From positions 64,001 to 128,000 of the IMG/VR virus record IMGVR_UViG_3300025389_001172: DNA of 64,000 bases; one strand, 5' to 3'. This document shows, in pieces, positions 2,588-43,328 of this stretch. The number at the start of each line of letters is the position of its first letter. Position 1 is the first letter of the stretch. The notes beneath the pieces are model-generated. The model had not been told where the DNA came from. It worked only from the letters and a program-made list of their open reading frames with translations, and searched no databases. Source of the DNA: a virus (taxonomy: Duplodnaviria; Caudoviricetes). A program made the translations under genes and the position numbers.

Positions 2588-3468
2588 AGATCTATGACGT
2601 GTTTTCTTTCTACAACGAATTCGACGTATTAGAAATACGTCTCCAGGAACTATGGGACACAGTAGATTATTTCGTCCTATTAGAAGCCAGCACTACCTAT
2701 GTAGGTAATGCTAAACCCTATCTGTTCGAAGAGAACAAGGCCAGATTCGCACCATATCTAGAAAAGATACGCCATATCAAACTAGACGATTCCTTAGAAG
2801 ATCAAAAGAAAATATTTACTAATGAGATAGATGATACCTGGGTGCGTGAAAAATATCAACGTTGGGCCAGCGGTCGTGGTCTAGAAGGCCTACAGCCAGA
2901 AGACATAGTCATAGTCAGCGATCTAGATGAGGTACCCCGTGCTGAGATCATCGAGATGATACGTGAAGATGAAAATGACTATGATCGATATCTCCTATGG
3001 ATTCCACAACTCCAGTACAAGATCAATTACATGAAAACACAGTATCCCAGCCGCCACGGAGTCATCATGGTCACTAGGGGAAGGGCTTTTACTAATCCAC
3101 AACAGGAAAGAGAATACAGTTTCTTCTGGAATCGTAAACCAGACAATACCGTAGAAGTAGATCATGGAGGTTGGCATTTTACCTACTTCGGTGATGAAGA
3201 TCACTGTGTGAATAAACTAAAGAATTTCGCTCATACCGAACAGGCCACCGCAGACGTCATTGACGATTTCGATATCGCATGGCAGATACGCAACAAGTAC
3301 GGTAAGGATGGTGTGGACGTCAAGAGCAATGAGAGATTTGAATATGTGGTGGTCGATGATTACTTTCCTCGATGCATCACAGAAAATATCGAAAAATATC
3401 AGCATATGATCATACCCGATGCGGTATTCCGAGTAGACGATCTCTACAGACCCACAGATAAGAATTAA
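2584..3468 (+). CDS. Glycosyltransferase family 17-like, second paralog
   Basis: YDVFSFYNEFDVLEIRL, VSDLDEVP, GGWHFTY, KLKNFAHTEQ shared with 1131..1973. Confidence 0.85.
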   Translation: MKIYDVFSFYNEFDVLEIRLQELWDTVDYFVLLEASTTYVGNAKPYLFEENKARFAPYLEKIRHIKLDDSLEDQKKIFTNEIDDTWVREKYQRWASGRGLEGLQPEDIVIVSDLDEVPRAEIIEMIREDENDYDRYLLWIPQLQYKINYMKTQYPSRHGVIMVTRGRAFTNPQQEREYSFFWNRKPDNTVEVDHGGWHFTYFGDEDHCVNKLKNFAHTEQATADVIDDFDIAWQIRNKYGKDGVDVKSNERFEYVVVDDYFPRCITENIEKYQHMIIPDAVFRVDDLYRPTDKN

Positions 3469-10815: not shown

Positions 10816-12855
10816 TCACTTCTCCGTTGCTATCCATTCGCCGTTCCAGTTGGGTGGTAAATCTTGTTGCTTCATAAACTCGCAACGTTCAATCCAAATC
10901 TTGTAGTACTTGTCCATTTGTCCACCGAAGCTGCCTTTTAGTTGTTTACACAGGTCGGCAGCTTCATCAAACTTCTTGGCTTTATATAAGTCATGCATCG
11001 CTTCATGCTGTTCTTGATCCTTACTGTAATCGTTACCTTTGGTACGTAGTGCTGTATAGATCAAGTCCGCCACTGTTTTGCCTTTTGGTTGTAGATTATC
11101 TAACATCAGGTAGAAGAAATCATCTCGAGTACGATTGTAGGTTTCTGCACCGATAATACATAGCACACCATAAGCCTTGCAACGTGCTTCTAGTCGTGCC
11201 GCAGTTGAAACCATATCTCCCAAGATGTCGTAACCGTGTCTATCAGTTGATCCCATCTCACCAATGAAGCCAATACCTGAATTACACCCCCAACCCATTG
11301 CGGCTGGTGGCAGGCCTTTGGCTTCCATGATCTTGGTATACTCATCTACACGGTCCAACATCTCTAGTCCTACTCGAACCATTGTACGAGCGTGGTTGGG
11401 ATCTTCTATAGGAGCACCATGGATGTGCATACTGGCATCGCCCACATACTTGATGATCATACCTTTGTTTTCTATCATTGGCTGGCTGATAGCATCCATG
11501 TAGCCATTCATGTACTGACCGAGGCCTGCTACATCATCACCGTAGTGTTCGCCGATAGGAGTGAATCCACGTAGATCAGAGAACATGACGCTGACATCTT
11601 TACGCACACCACGTTTGATTAAGTCTGGATCTTTTTGTAGCATCTCTACCACTTCTTTAGAGCAGTAGCCGGCAAACTGTTTCTTTATCTGAAGTTTTTC
11701 CAAGTACTCAGCCACAAACTTAACTCCATAAGCATGGAGCATGACAAGGACAAGAGCACCACAGATATAAGCACCATCTCCAAGCCAAAGATTCTGCACA
11801 AAAAGATAACGACTGAGGGCAACACAACCAATAGAACTAATAATACCAAAAAGAATGCCAACATAGGTCCACCTCGTTAAAAATAACAGTATAATGCCTA
11901 ATCCTGCCAAGGTCAATATCTCAGCCCCATCTGCCCAATCTGGACGCTGTATCGTCACACCATTGATCATTGTGGCCAACACAGCGGCCTGTACATCTGA
12001 CGGCCATACCGCACCCTTGGATGTTGGAACAGGATTACCTAGGCCCGCGGCTGTTACACCCACTATGACCACAGCACCGCCTAAATCTTTGGGTAGATCT
12101 ACAGCACTCACTGACCTGCTTTGCTGGCTCCAATCTATCCAGATACGACCAAAATTATCTGTGGTAATAGGACCAAACTTTGGAATACGCATCTTTTCTA
12201 CACCCAGCTCGTTCAGTTTGACCTGCACTGTGGTGTCCTGTGCCAGTACACGTAGAGCCTCCATGCTTAGGCTAGGATATAGTTTACCATCTATGGTAGC
12301 TATCAAAGGTATGCGGCGATTCACACCATCTATCTCAGGTAGTGTGTTTACTGTGCCTATGCCCACTGCTGATTCTTCTAGTTCTGGACGATTGGCGATC
12401 ATGCCCGGATAGGTTATGATACGATCTAGGTATTCAGGACCTAGTACTGCAGACCCTGGAGGTCTGGGTTCATTCTTGGTTTTCTGTGAGGGCATGTTGG
12501 GCAATACCACAGGATACTCAGCGAGTGTTTTTGCCAGTTGAGCATCCTTGCCCATACGATCTGGTTCGGCCATGAGCACGTTGAATACTACAAGTCCAGC
12601 CCCACGTCGATACAAATCTCGTATTAGTTTAGCATAACGATCTCTGGGCAGAGGCCATTGTCCATATTTGTCCAGAGTGGCTTCATCTATGTTGACCGTG
12701 ACTATGTTGTTTTCAGTAGGTGCTTTGCTGGTTATCAGAGTATCAAAATAACGCAAGCGGACACTTTCTACGAATGAAGGATCCCATATTCTAATGGCCA
12801 GCATGACGGCCAGTGTAATCAGGGCCATCCAAGGATTCAGTAAGATTTTTTTCAT
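10816..12855 (-). CDS. CHASE2-domain class III adenylate cyclase
   Basis: N-terminal TM, CHASE2 (VNIDEATLDKYGQWPLPR, DGVNRRIP), three TMs, cyclase motifs FSDLRGFT, IKYVGDA, YDILGDMVSTAARLE. Confidence 0.92.
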   Translation of the reverse strand: MKKILLNPWMALITLAVMLAIRIWDPSFVESVRLRYFDTLITSKAPTENNIVTVNIDEATLDKYGQWPLPRDRYAKLIRDLYRRGAGLVVFNVLMAEPDRMGKDAQLAKTLAEYPVVLPNMPSQKTKNEPRPPGSAVLGPEYLDRIITYPGMIANRPELEESAVGIGTVNTLPEIDGVNRRIPLIATIDGKLYPSLSMEALRVLAQDTTVQVKLNELGVEKMRIPKFGPITTDNFGRIWIDWSQQSRSVSAVDLPKDLGGAVVIVGVTAAGLGNPVPTSKGAVWPSDVQAAVLATMINGVTIQRPDWADGAEILTLAGLGIILLFLTRWTYVGILFGIISSIGCVALSRYLFVQNLWLGDGAYICGALVLVMLHAYGVKFVAEYLEKLQIKKQFAGYCSKEVVEMLQKDPDLIKRGVRKDVSVMFSDLRGFTPIGEHYGDDVAGLGQYMNGYMDAISQPMIENKGMIIKYVGDASMHIHGAPIEDPNHARTMVRVGLEMLDRVDEYTKIMEAKGLPPAAMGWGCNSGIGFIGEMGSTDRHGYDILGDMVSTAARLEARCKAYGVLCIIGAETYNRTRDDFFYLMLDNLQPKGKTVADLIYTALRTKGNDYSKDQEQHEAMHDLYKAKKFDEAADLCKQLKGSFGGQMDKYYKIWIERCEFMKQQDLPPNWNGEWIATEK

Positions 12856-12860
12856 AGTAA

Positions 12861-12868
12861 TATTTATA
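12861..12868 (-). promoter_or_regulatory. T4-type late promoter TATAAATA (example of a recurrent motif)
   Basis: Perfect copies also at 15333, 24720, 54783, 56620 (minus) and 30678, 57740 (plus); TAAATA cores before csgF (21583), the autotransporter (17364) and others. Confidence 0.75.
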
Positions 12869-13523
12869 GCAGGCGTTCTAGCCAGCGTTGATTTACAGCC
12901 TTGAGATCTATCAGTGTGACTACATCTGCTGTGTGGAATACAGGATCCCAGCTGGGGTCACTGACAACACAGGCACCTAGTTTTTGATAGACCTGTAGGA
13001 GTTTGGGTATAGCACCTGTTGAAGTATCTTCTTCAAGATAGGGATTCAAAGGCACAGCGTGAGCTCCATCTAGATATCTATAGGTTTCTCTCCAATGATC
13101 ACGTGCGGCGATCACAGCGGTTTCGCTAGGCTTAAGGCTGGTAGCTCCCATGATGTATTCACAGTTTAGGCGCTTGGATAGATCGAACAGATTACCCCAC
13201 AGCATGGGAATCACTGCGGCGTTGCGATAGTCTGGATGCACAGCGGCACGCCCTATCTCTAGTATCTTTGAGTGATCTAATTTTAGGTTGGCTAGATCAA
13301 ATTCGCTTTCTGTATAAAATCCTAGATCACTGTTGACTATGGCTCTGTAGTAGCCCACTACCTTGCGATCACTGACAGCTATCACGTGATAGGCATCTTG
13401 ATCCCATTGATCTTCATCTTGTTCAGGATCTATACCAAAAGCTGACTGCATCATCTTGGCTCGGAATTTAAGAGCAGATTCTATATCATCTTCATATCCT
13501 AGTATTTTGATCTTTAATGACAT
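12864..13523 (-). CDS. GNAT N-acyltransferase, OlsB (ornithine lipid)-like
   Basis: VVGYYR, SEFDL, LEIGRAAVHPDYR, LLQVYQKLGA..DPVFHTAD. Confidence 0.75.
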   Translation of the reverse strand: MSLKIKILGYEDDIESALKFRAKMMQSAFGIDPEQDEDQWDQDAYHVIAVSDRKVVGYYRAIVNSDLGFYTESEFDLANLKLDHSKILEIGRAAVHPDYRNAAVIPMLWGNLFDLSKRLNCEYIMGATSLKPSETAVIAARDHWRETYRYLDGAHAVPLNPYLEEDTSTGAIPKLLQVYQKLGACVVSDPSWDPVFHTADVVTLIDLKAVNQRWLERLL

Positions 13524-22679: not shown

Positions 22680-23351
22680 TTACCCAAATTCAGGAAACAG
22701 TATCTCATCTACGAATTTGCGTATTACAGTTTCTTCTACACCCATTGAGACCATACTGCGTACTACATGCGGATTCTGCTTTTGATAACGGCAGTATCGA
22801 TCTTGCTCCGCACGATAATCCGCATCTTCTTGCTTATAGCTTCCTATATTGGCCAGATAGTAGTGTAGGCTTTTCATCGCTATATGGCACAGTGATTCTA
22901 GTTCTGCTTCTTCATTGACATTGCCCGCGGCTATCATGCTAGGACTGAATATGGCTCGGGCCCAATCGGGTAATTCTCTAGGCTTGTTCCACTGTAGATC
23001 TTCTGTTTCTTCGGCAAACCATGACATCATAGGATGTTGAGGATCCGCAGTAGCTGAGAAATCTAGGAATGTGCCTGTGATCTTGTTTGGACCGCAGACA
23101 GCATCAAATCCCCAGATCGGACCTGGATCATTTAATTTTGGAAATATAGTGCAGTGTAAGATGTATATTTTATGACTCTGTCGTTTATCTACGATTTCTA
23201 CGTGGGCTCTACGGTATGAACCGCTGTGGAATATGGCATTGTGCCAATCGTACCCTTCGATATGATTATTAAACAGTTTACCTGATGTGGCTAATTTATA
23301 TTCTATATCTCGGGCTAATTTTTCTATACGGTCTTGTACATTAACAGTCAT
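22680..23351 (-). CDS. Ferredoxin-dependent bilin reductase (PcyA/PcyX-like)
   Basis: YRRAHVE, LHCTIFP, PIWGFD, ITGTFLDFS, RELPDWARAIFS, YCRYQKQNPH; adjacent to heme oxygenase. Confidence 0.85.
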   Translation of the reverse strand: MTVNVQDRIEKLARDIEYKLATSGKLFNNHIEGYDWHNAIFHSGSYRRAHVEIVDKRQSHKIYILHCTIFPKLNDPGPIWGFDAVCGPNKITGTFLDFSATADPQHPMMSWFAEETEDLQWNKPRELPDWARAIFSPSMIAAGNVNEEAELESLCHIAMKSLHYYLANIGSYKQEDADYRAEQDRYCRYQKQNPHVVRSMVSMGVEETVIRKFVDEILFPEFG

Positions 23352-23868
23352 AGGTCCCTAGTATCTTGATAGCCCAATCAAAAGCCACGTTGGCTTCATC
23401 AGCCATACTGTCATCTAGCATACCACGCAATACGAACATGAGGTCTTTGCTGTTTTCGAACTCTAGATGACTATGTGGAGCATCTATGATCTTCTTGATC
23501 ATCTGTCCGCCAAACATATCACCCATGTGCCAGGTATACAGGTGTGCCAGCACTGCGTTAGGATCGGTAAGGTCTCTGATATAACCGCAGTAGTCTGTGG
23601 TCTCTAGCTTTAAGAAATGTCGGTCATCTCTGCCCTGCATCATTTCTTCATAGTCTGCCAGTATGAGTTCTGCACGTTCGATGCCTGGGAGATCGTCTAA
23701 CAGCCCTAGAGCCTGGCAGCGAATCTCGATACTCTTGTACCAAGAGTATTTTTGATAGGTATAATCGATCCATACCTCCATCGGCAGTGTGTGATCAAAT
23801 ACGGCCTGCATGAATCGAGTACTTTCTGCGGCCTTGTGGCGTTCTTGTGTTAGTTCTTTGAGGCTCAT
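23341..23868 (-). CDS. Heme oxygenase (HemO/Ho1-like)
   Basis: LKELTQERHKAAE, AHLYTWHMGDMFGGQMIKK, EANVAF. Confidence 0.9.
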   Translation of the reverse strand: MSLKELTQERHKAAESTRFMQAVFDHTLPMEVWIDYTYQKYSWYKSIEIRCQALGLLDDLPGIERAELILADYEEMMQGRDDRHFLKLETTDYCGYIRDLTDPNAVLAHLYTWHMGDMFGGQMIKKIIDAPHSHLEFENSKDLMFVLRGMLDDSMADEANVAFDWAIKILGTYDC

Positions 23869-26642: not shown

Positions 26643-26731
26643 TAGTTTTCTCCTTATTAAGTGAGTATATCCGGGCACTATGCCCATTCGTAGCATCCAT
26701 TAGGTATACCACACCTTTATTTAGTATACAT

Positions 26732-27040
26732 TTAATCTATCTTTTTGTCAACCTGATCTTCGTCAATCACATGATCCGCCACTGGTCCAAACCGATCTAG
26801 ATAGTTTTCTTTGTAGCTCTTTTTAGATGCTTCAGCATCGTATTCTGCCTGCAATTCGCTATTTTCCTTGATTTTTAACAGCCAAGGATGGAGCAGTTTA
26901 TCAGTGATCCTGCGACTCAGTTCTTCTATGACCTGTTCAGCGGGCTCGCCCTGTGCGATACGTTGTAGTGCTATGCCGTACTCATAGATGCGGACACGTT
27001 CTACCCACTTTTCATATTCTTCGTTAGGATCGTATTTCAT
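26732..27040 (-). CDS. Stand-alone glutamyl-tRNA reductase (HemA) dimerisation-domain-like protein
   Basis: ALQRIAQGEPAEQVIEELSRRITDKLLHP resembles the HemA C-terminal domain; no catalytic domains. Confidence 0.65.
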   Translation of the reverse strand: MKYDPNEEYEKWVERVRIYEYGIALQRIAQGEPAEQVIEELSRRITDKLLHPWLLKIKENSELQAEYDAEASKKSYKENYLDRFGPVADHVIDEDQVDKKID

Positions 27041-27264
27041 CCGCCCCACCTCAACATAAACATAAGCTGATCCTGTTCTGTCTTGAAAAAATATGTGCTA
27101 CGATAGTCTGGATCGAATACTGCCGCCGCGGGATCTTCTCCTAACTTGTACCAAGTTTCATTCCAAGGTCCTATATTTTCTACGCACCACTGCTGTACCT
27201 CGGGCCACCGATGTTTGGTATAGGCTGTATATATTAATCTTTTGTTAAGTTTAGGATAGGTCAT
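27037..27264 (-). CDS. Small LRW-family protein
   Basis: QWCVENIGP...YFFKTEQDQLMFMLRWGG. Confidence 0.75.
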   Translation of the reverse strand: MTYPKLNKRLIYTAYTKHRWPEVQQWCVENIGPWNETWYKLGEDPAAAVFDPDYRSTYFFKTEQDQLMFMLRWGG

Positions 27265-27479
27265 TATGATCCCCACCTCAATAAGAACATCATATGATCT
27301 TGGGCACTGTGGAACTCAAAAACACCGTCTCCAATGTACCACCATCCTCGATGGCCAAATCTCTCTTCACACCATTCCAGGCAAGGCTTCCAACCCAGAT
27401 AACGATGGCCTGATATAGTGTTTAGTGATTCATATGGTGCAGGTATGCTGGCTATATGTCTTTTTGATATTTCGTTCAT
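27264..27479 (-). CDS. Small LRW-family protein
   Basis: EWCEERFG...FEFHSAQDHMMFLLRWGS. Confidence 0.75.
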   Translation of the reverse strand: MNEISKRHIASIPAPYESLNTISGHRYLGWKPCLEWCEERFGHRGWWYIGDGVFEFHSAQDHMMFLLRWGS

Positions 27480-27664
27480 TATGAACCCCACCTTAATAAG
27501 AACATCATATGATCCTGAGCATTGTAGAAATATATACACCTGTTTCTTTCAAACCAAGTCTTGTGTCCAACAGGTCCAAACTGTCGGTAGCACCAGCTTA
27601 AAACCTCCAGATCCACCTGATTGTTTAACTCAACTATGTGGTATTCGTGACGATCTACCTTCAT
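27479..27664 (-). CDS. Small LRW-family protein
   Basis: SWCYRQFGP...YFYNAQDHMMFLLRWGS. Confidence 0.75.
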   Translation of the reverse strand: MKVDRHEYHIVELNNQVDLEVLSWCYRQFGPVGHKTWFERNRCIYFYNAQDHMMFLLRWGS

Positions 27665-27864
27665 AGCCACCTCAACACAAACATTAAATAATCCTGCTCA
27701 CGATTAAACTCAAATACACCTTCACCCTGGTACCGCCAACCGGCCTTGACAGTTTGCTCGCACCAGCGTATGCAGGGTGACCATCCTGGATAGGTTAGGC
27801 CCATAATTTCCTGCTGACCTGGAGATGAGACGCTGGCTATATATCTATCTTGTTGACTGTTCAC
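27661..27864 (-). CDS. Small LRW-family protein (GTG start)
   Basis: RWCEQTV...FEFNREQDYLMFVLRWL. Confidence 0.75.
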   Translation of the reverse strand: MNSQQDRYIASVSSPGQQEIMGLTYPGWSPCIRWCEQTVKAGWRYQGEGVFEFNREQDYLMFVLRWL

Positions 27865-28175
27865 GACCACCTCAAAATAAACATAGTAGCATCTTTTTCT
27901 TTTTCAAAGATAAAGTCTCGGCCCCGACGCTCGTATGCACCTTTACAATTTTCTTCCAACCAGTACCTGATATCTATGGCGTGTTTGTTATCTACTAGAG
28001 TAGGCAACATAACACGAGTCCATCCTATACTTTTGAGCATACCCCAAAGTATTTCACGATCAATTTCTTCTTGCATTTCCTTGGCCTTAGCTTCTATCAT
28101 TTCTTTTTCTAAGATAGTCTGCTGGTCATTTACCCACGTTTTCATACTGTCTATACATTCTGGACTTAGATTCAT
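27861..28175 (-). CDS. Small LRW-family protein
   Basis: MQEEIDREIL...YWLEENC...FIFEKEKDATMFILRWS. Confidence 0.75.
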   Translation of the reverse strand: MNLSPECIDSMKTWVNDQQTILEKEMIEAKAKEMQEEIDREILWGMLKSIGWTRVMLPTLVDNKHAIDIRYWLEENCKGAYERRGRDFIFEKEKDATMFILRWS

Positions 28176-28420
28176 GCCCACCTCAGGGTAAACAACAAAT
28201 AATCCCGTTCATCCTGCCACACCACCCGGTCAGGATTATACATAATTCTAACACCGGGATTTAGCTCTTCAAACTTACGATCAAATAACCGTTCTCGAGT
28301 ATGATTATTACAATCTGGATAATTTGAACTTATGTAATACACACAGTTTAACAAAGATTTGGGTATCTTTTTCATTCGTTCTTCGTGTGGAAAATCTACA
28401 GGAATTACAATTTCTATCAT
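28172..28420 (-). CDS. Small LRW-family protein
   Basis: ...VVWQDERDYLLFTLRWA. Confidence 0.7.
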   Translation of the reverse strand: MIEIVIPVDFPHEERMKKIPKSLLNCVYYISSNYPDCNNHTRERLFDRKFEELNPGVRIMYNPDRVVWQDERDYLLFTLRWA

Positions 28421-28635
28421 GACCACCTCAATAAAAACAATGTGTATAATTTTTTGTCGAGTTGGTAGCATCTCTGGCCGTCCCGGGTCTCCCCTACCGT
28501 CCAGGGACCTTGTTGTCTTATCCAGATTTCAATTTCTTCTCGATAGACTTCTACCACAACAATATGATGCGTTTTGCCTAAAACTTGAAATCCGGGCATG
28601 ACCTTACCAAAACAATCAAGGTATATATATGTCAT
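28417..28635 (-). CDS. Small LRW-family protein
   Basis: EIWIRQQG...KKLYTLFLLRWS. Confidence 0.7.
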   Translation of the reverse strand: MTYIYLDCFGKVMPGFQVLGKTHHIVVVEVYREEIEIWIRQQGPWTVGETRDGQRCYQLDKKLYTLFLLRWS

Positions 28636-28822
28636 AGCCACCTCAGTGCAAATAGTGCGGCTTTTTTTGGACAGTCGAATTCCCACCGTCGGCCCATACC
28701 GCGTTCTCGCCTAGATATCGGCCCAGTCTGAATTTGAGACCCAGAGATTCTATTATTTCCCGGTCAATTTGGTCTTGCATTGCCTTTGCTATTGATGTCA
28801 TTATTGCATCTTCTGTAATCAT
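28632..28822 (-). pseudogene. Frameshifted or internally deleted LRW-family member
   Basis: N-terminus MQDQIDREII in one frame (stop 28643); family C-terminus GRRWEFDCPKKAALFALRWL in another frame (28632-28697). Confidence 0.65.
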
Positions 28823-29049
28823 AGCCACCTCAACAAGAACATGGCCAGATCTTGTTCTTTCTCGAAACGAAAGATATGATAGGCCATACGAGCGTGATAA
28901 CCCAGGGTGTCAATACACCACTGATTGATCTCATCATAGATCGATTCTGTGAGGGGAACGGCATAATCTACACCAGATAGTTTATACGAGGGTTGATCCC
29001 ACACCTCGGCTACCCATTTACGTCCCTGTCGTCTGTAGTCTATGTCCAT
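28819..29049 (-). CDS. Small LRW-family protein
   Basis: EINQWCIDTLG...FRFEKEQDLAMFLLRWL. Confidence 0.75.
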   Translation of the reverse strand: MDIDYRRQGRKWVAEVWDQPSYKLSGVDYAVPLTESIYDEINQWCIDTLGYHARMAYHIFRFEKEQDLAMFLLRWL

Positions 29050-29294
29050 TCTGCGTATTTCATCTTAAACATCAGTATATCCTTGTCATCCCAGAAGTAA
29101 AATCCATAACAGACGTCATACATGGGACTGACGTCGCTGGTGTTGACTTCTTCCATCCATAGGAAACTATGGCAGTTCTCTATGGCCCAGTATTTGATAT
29201 CTTTGATCTTTGGCGGATCTCCTAACACTATCAGCGTACACTGATCTAGGAGTTCCTGTGGAGGTTCATAGGGAAATAAGTAGTTACTGATCAT
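29040..29294 (-). CDS. Divergent LRW-family protein
   Basis: YWAIENC...FYFWDDKDILMFKMKY. Confidence 0.65.
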   Translation of the reverse strand: MISNYLFPYEPPQELLDQCTLIVLGDPPKIKDIKYWAIENCHSFLWMEEVNTSDVSPMYDVCYGFYFWDDKDILMFKMKYAEWT

Positions 29295-29551
29295 CTCATC
29301 AGGCTCCCTACAAACTCCACGGTGATCTGAGACTCAGGTATGACATCCCCTCCATGTTCCAATATAAACATAGTAGCATCTTTTTCACTGACAAAATGCC
29401 AGTCCATCCAATCTGTATCTATATTGGTCATGTATCTATCACCGGGCAGTCCGAACTGTTCAAAGGTGCGTGCCAAGATCTCATTCCACATGACATGCTC
29501 GTTGGCAGGATCATTGATCTCATTCCAATAGAGTCGCACAGTTGTGGTCAT
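29291..29551 (-). CDS. Divergent LRW-family protein
   Basis: EQFGLPGDRY...HFVSEKDATMFILE. Confidence 0.65.
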   Translation of the reverse strand: MTTTVRLYWNEINDPANEHVMWNEILARTFEQFGLPGDRYMTNIDTDWMDWHFVSEKDATMFILEHGGDVIPESQITVEFVGSLMR

Positions 29552-30372
29552 ACAGTAAACGAAAATCCAGGATCAAAATGGTCTGTGGGCTCATAGCCAA
29601 CATAGCCACGAGGATTACTGACAACACGAGTCTCACCGATATAATAACTTACCGGATCGTGCATATGGCCATGTACCCAAGTATGGATGTTGGGATTGTC
29701 CAGAATGAACTGATCCATGTTGCTGGAGTATCCACCATTCATAGTGGTATCATACCGATATTTCTCGTTGACACTCTGGAAGCTGGGAGAGTGATGAGTA
29801 ATCACAACAAAGGGCTTGTCACGGTTCAACTCCAATATGGTCTTGAAATACTGTTTGGTCTTGAAGTGTATCTCAGCAGTACGTTCCGGCGTCAGCTTGT
29901 GCCAGACGCTTCTATCAGGATAGAATTCTGTGATTGCCCTGTAGTCATTCATCCCCATCTTGAGATGCATGGCCGTGATTGGGTCGCCTCCATTGAGGTC
30001 GGTCCATAGGGTAGAGCCCATAAACATGACTCCACGATATTCTTCTACCTGATCCTCTAGCAGGGTCACGTTGGCTGGCAAGATCTTTAGGAGTTCATCG
30101 TAGGTCTTGTAGAGTTTGCCACCATAGTGCTCGTGATTGCCCATGACCATGAATACCTTGTCATATTTGGCGCATTCTACACGGAAGAATTCACTACAGG
30201 GAAATTCTCGATTGGGTTCTCCGGTTGGGTATAGAGTTTTGGTACTGTGGAATTCTGTGGTGAGCCTGCGAGCTTCGCAGACGTCACCGGCGAGAATTAA
30301 AACCTCCCCACCTGGGAGTTCGCAGTATCCACCAACATCTAGATGTAAATCACTTACCAAACTCACCTTCAT
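29548..30372 (-). CDS. Calcineurin-like metallophosphoesterase
   Basis: SDLH, LAGD, GNHE, THH, HGHMH, NPRGY. Confidence 0.9.
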   Translation of the reverse strand: MKVSLVSDLHLDVGGYCELPGGEVLILAGDVCEARRLTTEFHSTKTLYPTGEPNREFPCSEFFRVECAKYDKVFMVMGNHEHYGGKLYKTYDELLKILPANVTLLEDQVEEYRGVMFMGSTLWTDLNGGDPITAMHLKMGMNDYRAITEFYPDRSVWHKLTPERTAEIHFKTKQYFKTILELNRDKPFVVITHHSPSFQSVNEKYRYDTTMNGGYSSNMDQFILDNPNIHTWVHGHMHDPVSYYIGETRVVSNPRGYVGYEPTDHFDPGFSFTV

Positions 30373-30373
30373 A

Positions 30374-30640
30374 TCAACTCCACCTTAATCCAAAATGTGC
30401 GGCTTCTTTTTCAGAGCCAAAATAGATACGGATCCTACCGTTGTCGGCACTCATCCACGCCCACAGTGTATTCTTTTTACCAGTTTTATAGTAGTAGTCC
30501 AGCTCACAGCTAGGTCCCCAGGTTTCCCAGCACCACTGTCTGTGTTCTACAAATGTGTCGGCATCTTTATAGATATACTGAACCATATGGGTAAACGTAT
30601 CTCCACCTGAGTATTGACGTGTTAGTTTTTTGATCTTCAT
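30374..30640 (-). CDS. Small LRW-family protein, first gene of the array
   Basis: QWCWETWGP...IYFGSEKEAAHFGLRWS; ATG 6 nt after TATAAT. Confidence 0.75.
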   Translation of the reverse strand: MKIKKLTRQYSGGDTFTHMVQYIYKDADTFVEHRQWCWETWGPSCELDYYYKTGKKNTLWAWMSADNGRIRIYFGSEKEAAHFGLRWS

Positions 30641-30646
30641 ATTATT

Positions 30647-30675
30647 ATTATACAATCTTTTTGGTAAAAAGTCAA
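30647..30675 (-). promoter_or_regulatory. Sigma70-type promoter driving the LRW array
   Basis: TTGACT-N17-TATAAT. Confidence 0.75.
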
Positions 30676-42273: not shown

Positions 42274-42356
42274 GATTTAGTTTCCTTTTTGTTATGATAC
42301 ATCTTTTAGATTAAGATATATTCTATATTATATATCCTATATGAGATTACACCTAT

Positions 42357-42385
42357 GAAAAAGCGGCCATAAATAGCCGCTTTTT
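42357..42385 (-). terminator. Bidirectional terminator after tmRNA
   Basis: AAAAAGCGGC-loop-GCCGCTTTTT. Confidence 0.8.
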
Positions 42386-42710
42386 GGTTGTTTTGGTTAC
42401 AAGGTAAGTCCTACCCCGTGAGGATCATGCCGCTAAGGCATATACCTCATCATTAGATGCGTTAGCATTTATAGATTTGCTTGATTAAGGATCATCGCCT
42501 ATCCTGTTGCCTTTTTCGCTATCTCACCATGTCGAACCCAGGTCAGACCCATCAAAAGAACACTACCCTGTATTACGCCTCAGGCATACCCGATGCTCAG
42601 GATTCTTGCTCTACTAGCCACCGTGACGGATAGTAATGTTCTTATGGTGGATCTGGTGGGAATCGAACCCACGTCCACAATGCCTTTGCTAGAAAGGAAT
42701 TACAACAATT
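42386..42710 (-). ncRNA. ssrA: Circularly permuted (two-piece) tmRNA; outer ends approximate
   Basis: Acceptor piece first (GGTTCGATTCC T-arm, CAGATCCACCA ending 42645), intervening segment 42551-42644, coding piece from 42550 (GGGTCTG, G3:U70 pair); tag ORF 42425-42466 ANASNDEVYALAA-stop. Confidence 0.92.
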
Positions 42711-42713
42711 CTT

Positions 42714-43328
42714 TTATTGATTCCAATACTTAGGAACACCATATACTTCTACAACAACTCTACGATTCTCACTGCGACCTTCAGCTGTTTTATTTGTAGC
42801 CACTGGCTCTCTTTCGCCTTTGGTGTCTGTGTATATACGACCTGCTTCTAGACCTCGACTGATTAAATATTTTTTTACAGCTTCTGCACGACGCTGACCT
42901 AACTGTAAATTATAACTGTCTGTACCAACACTGTCAGTATGACCTACTACGATCGCAATTTCTACTGTCATGGTATTCAATTTCATCACTAATTGATCTA
43001 ATTCTATTTTACCCGCTGGCTTGATTACTGATCGATCAAAATCAAATAATGAGTTTGCTAGATAGGTTAATTTACCTGTTACTACAGCTTTAGGAGTCGG
43101 TGCTGGATTTACTGCCGGCGCTTTCGTTGGCACCACTGGCTGTAATGCCCCATCACATCTTGGATCGGCTGAGGCCGGTGTCCATGAGCTATCTCTCCAG
43201 CATAGGCCAGAGGAATTGGTCACGGGACTACCCTGGCTGGTCCAATTGTCGTTGACCATAGGCTCTGGTAAAAGATTAGCCTGTGCTACGCCTGCGACTG
43301 CTAATAATCCAAACAATAATACTTTCAT
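42714..43328 (-). CDS. OmpA-family protein (betaproteobacterial type)
   Basis: NSSGLCWRDSSWTPA, LFDFDRS, GHTDSVG, LGQRRAEAV, NRRV; TTGACA-N17-TATAAT at 43347-43375. Confidence 0.9.
   Translation of the reverse strand: MKVLLFGLLAVAGVAQANLLPEPMVNDNWTSQGSPVTNSSGLCWRDSSWTPASADPRCDGALQPVVPTKAPAVNPAPTPKAVVTGKLTYLANSLFDFDRSVIKPAGKIELDQLVMKLNTMTVEIAIVVGHTDSVGTDSYNLQLGQRRAEAVKKYLISRGLEAGRIYTDTKGEREPVATNKTAEGRSENRRVVVEVYGVPKYWNQ

Follow-up and report, generated by a model that had tools for sequence, protein, structure and literature searches.

The window, by which we mean the whole 64-kb stretch of DNA that was analysed, carries on its minus strand (30640-27037) a run of genes from one small-protein family, consisting of nine intact members, one frameshifted chimera and two divergent members. 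A metallophosphoesterase (MPE) gene is embedded within the run, and a second non-member, x1, follows its last cassette (Table 1). Gene coordinates are given after start correction. Several listed open reading frames (ORFs) began at the GTG inside AGGTGG; this start was replaced, an ATG or GTG overlapping the preceding stop being the better one.

Table 1 Features of the array and its borders, in window coordinates
Feature	Position	Strand	Length	Basis	3' end and junction
Sigma70-like promoter, heads operon	30647..30675	-		TTGACT-17-TATAAT; 11/12 matches, best on strand	
m1, first family member	30374..30640	-	88 aa	HMM E 1.9e-17; 85% identical orthologue in L072	...HFGLRWS-stop; TTA AGG TGG AGT TGA, then T ATG of next gene
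MPE, calcineurin-like, non-member	29548..30372	-	274 aa	PF00149 (Metallophos), E 6e-9	
d1, divergent member	29291..29551	-	86 aa	HMM E 3.3e-4	...EKDATMFILEHGG, then 17-aa tail without RW
d2, divergent member	29040..29294	-	84 aa	HMM E 7.8e-4; 93% identical in L072	...DILMFKMKYAEWT-stop
m2	28819..29049	-	76 aa	HMM and junction reading	...MFLLRWL-stop; TTGAGGTGGCTATGA
r1, remnant	28643..28822	-	59 codons	Other-frame C-terminus matched by HMM, E 1e-4	Donor frame ...AALFALRWL-stop; CTGAGGTGGCTATGA kept
m3	28417..28635	-	72 aa	HMM and junction reading	...LFLLRWS-stop; ATGA
m4	28172..28420	-	82 aa	HMM and junction reading	...LFTLRWA-stop; CTGAGGTGGGCATGA
m5	27861..28175	-	104 aa	HMM	...MFILRWS-stop; GTGA
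m6, GTG start	27661..27864	-	67 aa	HMM and junction reading	...MFVLRWL-stop; ATGA
m7	27479..27664	-	61 aa	HMM and junction reading	...MFLLRWGS-stop; AGGTGGGGTTCATAATG
m8, member with predicted fold	27264..27479	-	71 aa	HMM and junction reading	...MFLLRWGS-stop; TAATG
m9	27037..27264	-	75 aa	HMM and junction reading	...MFMLRWGG-stop; AGGTGGGGCGGATGA, feeding x1
x1, non-member, last gene of operon	26732..27040	-	102 aa	Stand-alone GlutR dimerisation-like domain, PF00745, E 7.6e-8	
Next sigma70-like promoter, ahead of dnaK	26723..26751	-		TTGACA-17-TATACT	

Organization of the array

The initial annotation had described about twelve small paralogues with LRW in their last codons, two divergent members in the same run, and one sigma70 promoter at the head. 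All of this is borne out. An HMM derived from the nine intact genes refinds them at E 6e-28 to 2e-17, recovers the remnant and both divergent members, and detects an extra family member beyond the window at genome positions 53872-53696. The head promoter is identical in L072 and L073, two relatives with ~83% identity in their coding DNA. Promoter-like sites between the genes score 9/12, which is the background level, and among the small genes no terminator-like site was found on the minus strand, the only one lying inside the phosphoesterase ORF. The ATG of m1 lies 6 nt past the -10 box and m1 has no Shine-Dalgarno (SD) sequence, so that the mRNA looks leaderless. At the other end, the promoter ahead of dnaK is the downstream limit of the transcription unit. 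From m1 to x1, stops and starts overlap or lie a few nucleotides apart on one transcript, as in a translationally coupled operon.

The start of the MPE gene is served by AAGGTGGAG of the m1 3' end (duplex -9.2 kcal/mol), and 32 of 74 related loci have an MPE homologue upstream of their array. The following gene, d1, overlaps MPE through an ATGA with a duplex of -3.1 kcal/mol, and shares 36 nt at 86% identity with the 3' module of m5. In the remnant r1, an m5-like 5' half is fused, with a change of frame, to the final ~60 nt of a different cassette, an intact version of which is present in L077. The same r1 remnant, and with it the window haplotype, recurs in independent samples, on at least 11 contigs, and is therefore not an artefact of assembly. 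The members m3 to m9 span 28635-27037 with sizes of 61-104 aa; m5, with its long N-terminal helix, belongs to the most widespread subfamily. An x1 orthologue with 66% identity closes the array in L072. The order exoribonuclease, MPE, array, x1 and DnaK is conserved within the phage lineage, and the neighbouring genes include the chaperone and protease genes DnaK, Hsp20, ClpS and ClpX.

An undescribed family of small proteins

Structurally, the family consists of a core of ~55 residues in beta-alpha-beta-beta-alpha order, with a hypervariable N-terminus and hypervariable loops. Conservation is concentrated in a W-C helix and a terminal D-x-x-x-F-x-L-[RK]-W helix. None of the nine intact members departs from the F, L, R and W in F-x-L-R-W, and in a 141-sequence alignment the annotated upstream W-C motif is retained with an invariant W and a C conserved at 90% or more. 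Among 149 best representatives, [RK]W plus exactly one residue forms the C-terminal end in 107. The family extends to 3586 clusters at 50% identity and 596 word-index homologues, all of them unnamed. An AlphaFold2 model of m8 (pLDDT 86.2, pTM 0.74) predicts a small beta-alpha-beta-beta-alpha sandwich, and hhalign relates the m5-like to the short subfamily at 98.3%. These models support a fold core common to the array members, in line with the common small fold initially suggested.

Database comparisons gave no name to this fold. For ten members, no Pfam match was better than E 0.01 and none passed the cut-off, the best PHROG match reached only E 0.011, and a scan of 141 family members against profiles returned scattered sub-threshold matches only. 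Foldseek found no match in the PDB at E <= 0.001. The best structural neighbour, 1uso_B (DCoH), aligns with a VIA-align Z of 5.5 (rmsd 2.4 Å, 59 aligned residues, 8% identity), a value that speaks for no more than a generic alpha/beta sandwich. The three-stranded sheet with two packing helices resembles DCoH / pterin-4a-carbinolamine dehydratase-like, RRM, ACT and KH sandwiches, but the Z of the DCoH-like match is below VIA-align's own level for more than a common arrangement, and no common motifs were noted. Weak structural neighbours of the family occur in Agrobacterium phage Atu_ph07. The array members belong to a large family of small, cytoplasmic proteins of phages that had hitherto not been described.

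Junctions and codon choice

All ten Arg-Trp pairs in the array are written AGG TGG, preceded by TTG (6), TTA (2) or CTG (2) and followed by ATGA (6), GTGA (1), TAATG (2) or TGAtATG (1). The initial claim of ten AGG TGG junctions before an overlapping or adjacent start is matched in full, with TGAtATG as an additional form. The resulting (G/A)AGGTGG is complementary to CACCUC of the 16S 3' tail and forms a suitably spaced SD within the upstream ORF; at ATGA junctions, where the ATG overlaps the stop, the GAGG core is 5 nt from the ATG. Anti-SD duplexes predicted for the ten LRW-fed starts, computed against a bacterial-type 16S tail that may not be the host's, range from -9.2 to -14.1 kcal/mol, compared with a median of -4.8 kcal/mol for 126 long genes. 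The window contains eight copies of TTRAGGTGG, all within the array, with 0.93 expected and none of 100 shuffles yielding at least eight. Since AGGTGG lies upstream of only 2 of the 126 long genes of this genome, the flavour of the SD is set by the Arg-Trp codons and not by the phage's usual AAGGAG. With AGG TGG next to an overlapping start, the 3' end of a cassette serves at the same time as ribosome-binding site for whichever gene lies downstream. LRW codons feed non-members likewise, namely MPE, x1 and, in L078, a gene of 124 aa. The starts of d1, m2 and m1 are without any SD. Taken together, the sequences support the view that the LRW codons provide a strong, well-spaced SD for any gene that would follow.

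AGG accounts for 7.3% of Arg codons in the 126 long ORFs of this genome, where Arg before Trp is written CGT 12 times, CGC 7 times and AGG twice. In a comparison of relatives, covering 143 unique junctions whose counts take no account of shared ancestry, 48% of the motif's Arg codons are AGG, as against 5.2% of those in the remainder of these domains (odds ratio 17); relative to the genes' own background, AGG is enriched ~7-fold. A start lies within 12 nt at 52 of 53 AGG junctions versus 74 of 90 with other codons. Whether AGG is kept where no gene follows had been posed as a check, and its use there falls to 1 of the 14 members without a start within 40 nt. The choice of AGG appears to be specific to the LRW site, as these counts support.

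About half of the junctions in other phages carry AGA, AAA, AAG or CGN and are still overlapped or tightly coupled, so the SD is not obligatory for coupling. Of the self-coupling cassette originally proposed, comparison supports a putative strong SD for the next gene, non-members included. The cultured jumbo Sinorhizobium phage Phosso (PV764938.1) encodes the same family, with ~16 ORFs of 65-145 aa (profile E 1e-7 to 1e-3), all annotated as hypothetical protein and ending in ...DAMLFKL[RTA]W-x(1-2)-stop. Where the array is one long run, these members are distributed in small clusters across 469 kb, and overlap with the next gene is limited to some of the junctions. R, T or A may stand in the Arg position, and an Arg there is mostly encoded by CGC or CGT. 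This dispersal and variability indicate that the dual use of the codons is lineage-specific.

Proposed cassette exchange and interpretation

Copy number among relatives ranges from 2 to at least 20, always clustered, with 2-5 members in one locus of some phages and at least 20 in one run of L074. Close relatives keep the m1-MPE-d1-d2-m2 and x1 flanks at 66-93% identity, and between these lie ~4-5 LRW-type members in L072, 10 in the window and roughly 15 in L078/L079. Interior members of close relatives stand in another order and are 38-73% identical. Such variable content fits the expansion and shuffling that had been predicted for the array. The strain variant L077 is 100% identical to the window over 503 nt, and both breakpoints lie inside cassettes, 35-60 nt upstream of the stop; one of them, in the one strain pair examined, coincides with the start of the conserved 3' module. 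In the strain variant P0016 / L077, m4 has a different 3' module, and patches of this module are common to non-adjacent cassettes.

Both ingredients of the mechanism, translational coupling and a region of hyperplasticity in a phage genome, are known, and here they are combined in a new form on an undescribed family. As in coupled polycistronic operons, stop and start overlap or adjoin, and the final codons of the preceding gene contain the SD, with ~5 nt aligned spacing. What differs is that the SD is written by an Arg-Trp motif common to paralogues, over ten consecutive junctions, so that the translation signal travels with the cassette and is not tuned per gene. For E. coli, it has been reported that coupling does not proceed mainly by re-initiation (PMC7538156), which makes the resident SD the relevant signal. 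In T4-type hyperplastic regions, PeSL cassettes are found among small, non-essential, fast-turnover early genes, and their short repeated border element is the substrate of modular shuffling between close relatives (PMC2839356, PMC4122927), a role that the 3' module of the array may share. PeSL units are, however, non-coding, with a sigma70 promoter and a stem-loop terminator around unrelated ORFans (PMC2839356, PMC4122927), whereas the array combines one promoter and no internal terminators with a coding repeat (3' helix module plus SD) and paralogous genes. A PeSL-type layout, with a strong early sigma70 promoter and a stem-loop terminator for each small ORF, was rejected on finding a single head promoter and no inter-gene hairpin.

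The uniform AGG TGG could be a legacy of recent duplication and Arg-Trp conservation that has no role in translation, with the ATGA overlaps alone coupling the genes. The 54 nt common to m7 and m8 at 89% identity fit such a legacy, as do the SD-less starts of d1 and m2 and the many relatives with AGA, AAA or CGN that still overlap the next gene. Nearby synonymous sites, however, are scrambled in the ten copies (Phe TTT/TTC; Leu TTG/TTA/CTG), yet AGG is found in 10 of 10. Together with the rarity of AGG at the remaining Arg positions in these genes, its near absence where no gene lies downstream, and a spacing and pairing energy typical of a strong SD, this makes a mere legacy improbable. We see a similarly slim chance that the junction TTGAGGTGGNNATGA is mainly another nucleic-acid signal, such as a recombination hot spot or the target, on early mRNAs, of a RegB-/RegA-like RNA-processing or repressor protein of the phage, its SD likeness being secondary. 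T4 RegB cleaves at GGAG in early SDs, the junction repeat recurs in nine to ten in-register copies, and the exchange breakpoints lie in or beside the 3' module. Their distance from the stop nevertheless keeps them away from the 9-mer itself, the motif stands at the exact SD distance from every start, and no RegB-/RegA-like enzyme was identified in this analysis; such a signal would, moreover, be compatible with an SD role.

The proteins, for their part, could serve the phage's own machinery instead of being host-directed effectors, as adaptors or regulators for DnaK, Hsp20, ClpS, ClpX or the phosphoesterase, or as assembly factors. The conserved synteny points in this direction, although synteny in one lineage is no proof of a functional link, and the best structural neighbours, such as DCoH, are protein-binding sandwiches. 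A further point in its favour is the T4 Gp23 capsid profile (PF07068), which weakly matches the N-terminal helix of m5-like proteins at profile positions ~164-228 of 376: among ten m5-like homologues, one scores 29.2 bits and three score 14-21 bits against a cut-off of 24.4 bits. Yet m5 itself gives no match; a PF07068 gene to compare with is absent from the 141-kb record. Copy number and content also differ strongly among close relatives, as the parts of a conserved machine seldom do, and we regard this role as unlikely.

We consider it likely that this ~3.9-kb operon of a large (jumbo), metagenome-only phage is a tandem, diversifying array of paralogues, and the comparisons above support reading its genes as putative self-coupling, shuffling cassettes. 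Ribosomes would initiate de novo, or stay engaged, at every junction, and one promoter with one near-leaderless first gene would suffice for the whole run. Because the same ~25-40-nt module ends every cassette, recombination between 3' modules would add, delete or swap cassettes while frame, stop, SD and start stay intact, so that expression would survive the gain, loss or exchange of a unit. The array may be expressed early, to judge from the promoter consensus. In the weakest step of this proposal, its products are probably early binders directed at the host and built on a single scaffold, for example takeover or counter-defence factors. We further postulate, as a tentative and rather doubtful extension, that the LRW module is a self-chaining cassette whose last ~10 codons act both as a portable stop/SD/start unit and as a patch of recombination homology, and that Arg(AGG) at the penultimate structural position is maintained no less by selection on translation than by selection on the protein. 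The array might in this way expand, contract and be rearranged with no need for integrase, promoter or terminator elements. It would be a counterpart, made of coding sequence, to integron or PeSL cassettes and would feed a rapidly diversifying library of early proteins.

Organization of the LRW gene array

All genes of the array lie on the minus strand. They comprise nine intact members of the LRW family (m1 to m9), two divergent members (d1 and d2), a frameshifted chimeric remnant (r1) and two non-members, a metallophosphoesterase gene (MPE) and x1. The latter is the last gene of the operon and also closes the array in relatives. The initial annotation had described a tandem run of small paralogs behind one promoter, in which the codons of the C-terminal Leu-Arg-Trp (LRW) supply the Shine-Dalgarno (SD) sequence of the next gene, and this description proved accurate. 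Start codons were corrected by sequence, as automatic ORF calls often chose the GTG inside AGGTGG; an ATG or GTG overlapping the preceding stop is the better start candidate.

Features of the array and its flanks, in order of transcription (window coordinates)
Feature	Coordinates	Strand	Length	Description
Head promoter	30675-30647	-		sigma70-like, TTGACT-17-TATAAT; best match on the strand
m1		-	88 aa	first gene after the head promoter
MPE		-	274 aa	calcineurin-like metallophosphoesterase, PF00149
d1		-	86 aa	divergent member
d2		-	84 aa	divergent member
m2		-	76 aa	intact member
r1		-	59 codons	remnant
m3		-	72 aa	intact member
m4		-	82 aa	intact member
m5	27861-28175	-	104 aa	intact member
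m6		-	67 aa	intact member
m7		-	61 aa	intact member
m8		-	71 aa	intact member
m9		-	75 aa	intact member
x1	26732-27040	-	102 aa	stand-alone GlutR (HemA) dimerisation-like domain, non-member; PF00745, E 7.6e-8
Second promoter	26751-26723	-		sigma70-like, ahead of dnaK

The intergenic stretch of ~60 nt that carries the head promoter is virtually identical in relatives with ~83% coding-DNA identity, and the segment from promoter to m1 start (30638-30675) is identical in the related loci L072 and L073. The m1 gene has no SD and its ATG lies 6 nt past the -10 box TATAAT, so that its mRNA may be leaderless or nearly so. A search for minus-strand terminator-like hairpins found none among the small genes; the single one detected sits inside the phosphoesterase ORF.

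The window covers bases 64001-128000 of an IMG/VR record of 141,321 nt. This record is 39% complete by CheckV, which makes it part of a phage genome of roughly 350 kb; relatives sharing the gene neighbourhood reach 265-353 kb. The genes around the array are typical of 'huge' phages: the window also encodes DnaK, a helicase-methyltransferase and, at 22680-23868, ~3 kb downstream of x1, a heme oxygenase with a ferredoxin-dependent bilin reductase, while the syntenic relative L072 encodes ClpX-like, S21, Hsp20 and ClpS proteins. Between x1 and dnaK the window holds the dnaK promoter only, whereas L072 carries an inserted 484-aa gene and a Dam-type methyltransferase (PF02086) at its positions 10947-13445. 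The 141-kb record further contains a permuted tmRNA (window 42334-42737, minus strand; genome 106334-106737; tag ANASNDEVYALAA, ARAGORN) and, just upstream of the window, a cluster of seven tRNAs including Trp-CCA (genome 58082-61895). A tRNA-Arg(CCU) for the rare AGG codon is absent from the seven tRNAs of this 39% complete fragment.

Junction sequence, codon choice and predicted ribosome binding

In the alignment of the nine intact members, F, L, R and W of the F-x-L-R-W motif are invariant. An HMM built from them recovers all nine (E 6e-28 to 2e-17) and also matches d1 (3e-4), d2 (8e-4), r1 at its C-terminus, read in a second frame (1e-4), and a member outside the window (genome 53872-53696). 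This outside member, 58 aa long and ending in LFALKWAE, is the first of a separate minus-strand pair (genome 53872-53403) with AGG in neither gene; the second, of ~110 aa, ends in FYLRWGKTDV. Arg-Trp is written AGG TGG in all ten array copies, after a Leu codon with G or A in third position, and is followed by ATGA (6), TAATG (2), GTGA (1) or TGAtATG (1). The string TTRAGGTGG occurs eight times in the 64-kb window, each time inside the array, against 0.93 occurrences expected.

GAGGTG pairs exactly with CACCUC of the bacterial 16S 3' tail. For such a bacterial-type tail, predicted anti-SD duplexes range from -9.2 to -14.1 kcal/mol at the ten LRW-fed starts; the predicted medians are -4.8 kcal/mol for 126 long genes and -3.3 for random positions. 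The starts of d1 and m2, which follow genes without LRW, have no SD (-3.1 and -1.8 kcal/mol). At ATGA junctions the GAGG core lies 5 nt from the ATG, a spacing set by [RK]-W plus exactly one residue, which is found in 107 of the best 149 family representatives. At the m1-to-MPE junction the stop precedes the start, and a GGAG at 5 nt comes from Trp-Ser (TGG AGT); L072 keeps this GGAG although its Arg codon there is AGA. AGGTGG stands upstream of only two of the 126 long genes, the usual SD of this phage being AGGA or AAGGAG, so the protein motif imposes the flavour of SD within the array. Re-initiation has been argued not to be the main coupling route in E. coli (PMC7538156), which would make the resident SD the relevant signal.

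The uniform AGG could reflect either selection or common descent. Across 126 long ORFs of this genome AGG makes up 7.3% of Arg codons, and Arg directly before Trp is written CGT (12), CGC (7) or AGG (2). The synonymous sites beside AGG vary among the ten copies (Phe TTT/TTC; Leu TTG/TTA/CTG), and common descent alone therefore does not explain ten AGG codons out of ten. We extended the comparison to 143 non-identical junctions, taken from this genome, 69 IMG/VR loci and additional contigs. With kinship ignored, AGG encodes 48% of the Arg residues at the motif and 5.2% of those elsewhere in the same domains (odds ratio 17), and a start follows within 12 nt at 52 of 53 AGG junctions compared with 74 of 90 others (Fisher p 0.003, likewise ignoring kinship). 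Where no gene follows, a case singled out by the initial annotation, the codon is mostly lost: among 14 members without a start within 40 nt, one uses AGG.

Family-wide, the Arg site is occupied by AGG (53), AGA (29), AAA (22), AAG (11) or CGN (28), and most genes with non-AGG codons still overlap the next gene. AGA TGG and AAA TGG each contain an ATG in the reading frame of the downstream gene; in the pair at genome 53872-53403, the ATG within AAA TGG (Lys-Trp) of the first gene appears to be the start of the second. In the cultured Sinorhizobium phage Phosso (PV764938.1, L081) the site is R, T or A, with Arg mostly CGC or CGT, which together with the varied codons indicates that the protein tolerates other residues. 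AGG thus appears to be a strong preference of the arrayed lineages and not a family-wide rule.

Fold, distribution and turnover of the family

A profile search of 5.8 billion proteins returned 596 matches, none with a Pfam domain or a meaningful name, and an exhaustive search of 1.84 billion cluster representatives (50% identity) yielded 3586 at E <= 1e-3. The domain occupies the extreme C-terminus in the best 149 representatives. The homologs P0161 and P0237 are among a few two-domain fusions, as expected upon stop loss between cassettes. A further 505-aa protein, P0217, contains five tandem repeats of ~95 aa, each of which fits the family profile at the W-C helix alone (IxNWCKTNFGDKEVWERRL); P0217 is probably a repeat protein with no kinship to the family, or else a very remote branch of it. 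The family occurs in freshwater-type metagenomic jumbo phages and in Phosso, where about 16-24 members, all annotated as hypothetical, lie scattered across 469 kb; one of them directly follows a tRNA-Arg(CCU), the tRNA that reads AGG (Phosso 2821-3189).

The AF2 model of m8 (141-sequence alignment; pLDDT 86.2, pTM 0.74) follows the order beta(8-11)-alpha(31-41)-beta(46-50)-beta(53-56)-alpha(59-69). The m5 model (16-sequence alignment) is poor, with pLDDT 63.6, and was left out of fold searches; at this low confidence it shows a long N-terminal helix followed by the elements of m8 in the same order. Profiles of the m5-like subfamily, which has this helix, and the short subfamily, which includes m8, align in hhalign with 98.3% over the last 39 columns. 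Together these comparisons agree with the common small fold initially proposed. The members are Trp-rich (about 6.5% Trp) and mildly acidic to neutral, and no hydrophobic segment was found in their sequences.

Pfam and PHROG scans of ten members gave no usable match. Against 50,697 GenBank phages, blastn of the region and tblastn of m5 found no match, and tblastn of m8 gave one weak match (E 0.6), which led to Phosso. Foldseek against the PDB returned nothing at E <= 0.001 and a profile search of PDB sequences nothing below E 0.33; the best VIA-align hits among 48,161 chains (Z up to 5.5) were DCoH-like and other small alpha/beta sandwiches, a generic likeness only. Matches in BFVD and the ESM Atlas were uncharacterised phage proteins. 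The JGI name 'RuBisCO small subunit', carried by one homolog, was rejected, as it reflects a sub-threshold Pfam match seen in three of 141 members (lowest E 0.008). A DNA-mimic or nucleic-acid-binding assignment by charge was likewise rejected, the members having pI 5-9 and net charges of -4 to +3. Neither the family nor such an array was found described in the literature.

Array content varies among relatives, as the initial annotation had anticipated. At the 69 IMG/VR loci that the m5-like profile detects, the surrounding +/-6 kb contain between 1 and 7 members, which invariably share a strand; in five large records (up to 353 kb and 98% complete), a single locus accounts for all 2-5 members, and L074 carries at least 20 in a ~6-kb run with the junction TTGAGGTGGNCATGA. 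The closest relative, L072 (MPE 88% identical), retains m1-MPE-d1-d2-m2 and x1 at 66-93% identity, while its interior holds only four genes in an altered order, counterparts of m8, m9 and m7 plus a short m5-like one, with 38-67% identity. Between the same flanks, L078 and L079 (about 77% nucleotide identity) have roughly 15 members and two unrelated genes. Patches of 86-89% identity also link the 3' modules of non-adjacent cassettes, d1 with m5 and m7 with m8.

Over 503 nt (28711-28209) the window and a strain-level variant, L077, are 100% identical. L077 has an intact cassette at the position of r1; the 3' module of its m4 is not that of the window but matches m6 in the last 25 nt, and the cassette after it also differs. 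The comparison identifies r1 as an out-of-frame recombination scar joining an m5-like 5' half to the 3' end of an L077-type cassette; the junction is kept, so that m3 retains its SD. An assembly artefact is ruled out as the origin of r1, since the gene order and the 59-codon ORF recur on at least 11 contigs of independent samples (ENA, JGI, Logan).

Possible roles and significance

The initial proposal on gene organization withstood examination of fold, array content and codon retention. We consider it likely that the locus is a paralog array with SDs in its LRW codons and turnover of cassettes. Parts of this arrangement are already known, namely translational coupling, jumbo-phage multigene families and hyperplastic regions, in which small early genes shuffle at repeated border elements (PMC2839356). 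New would be a conserved protein terminus that serves as a portable ribosome-binding site and homology patch, in an undescribed large family.

The initial annotation further proposed that the members act as host-directed effectors. Three features fit fast-evolving binders of host targets, a role we regard as a minority prospect: the N-terminus and loops are hypervariable around a conserved core, the promoter is of host type, and turnover is rapid even among close relatives. Synteny is conserved with the phosphoesterase (32 of 74 loci) and with chaperone genes, which points instead towards work in the phage's own machinery, as does a weak Gp23-like match. In the Gp23 major-capsid Pfam profile, positions ~164-228 of 376 weakly match the long N-terminal helix and first strand of m5-like proteins (homologs P0229, P0166, P0093 and P0163), with one homolog reaching 29.2 bits (cut-off 24.4) and m5 itself giving no match. 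The m5-like N-terminus may be derived from or mimic a capsid protein, or the likeness may be due to chance in an amphipathic helix.

As read from sequence, the array offers a clean case of dual coding in nature: the terminus of a conserved protein domain would double as the ribosome-binding site of the next gene, and codon usage supplies an internal control. The family is very large and unannotated, and its confident fold model and clear hallmarks now make annotation and testing possible, for which the cultured Phosso provides a system. The differences between arrays of strains and close relatives are the signature expected of host arms-race genes. Should the proteins turn out to act in counter-defence or takeover, the arrays would supply many such factors and be easy to recognise.
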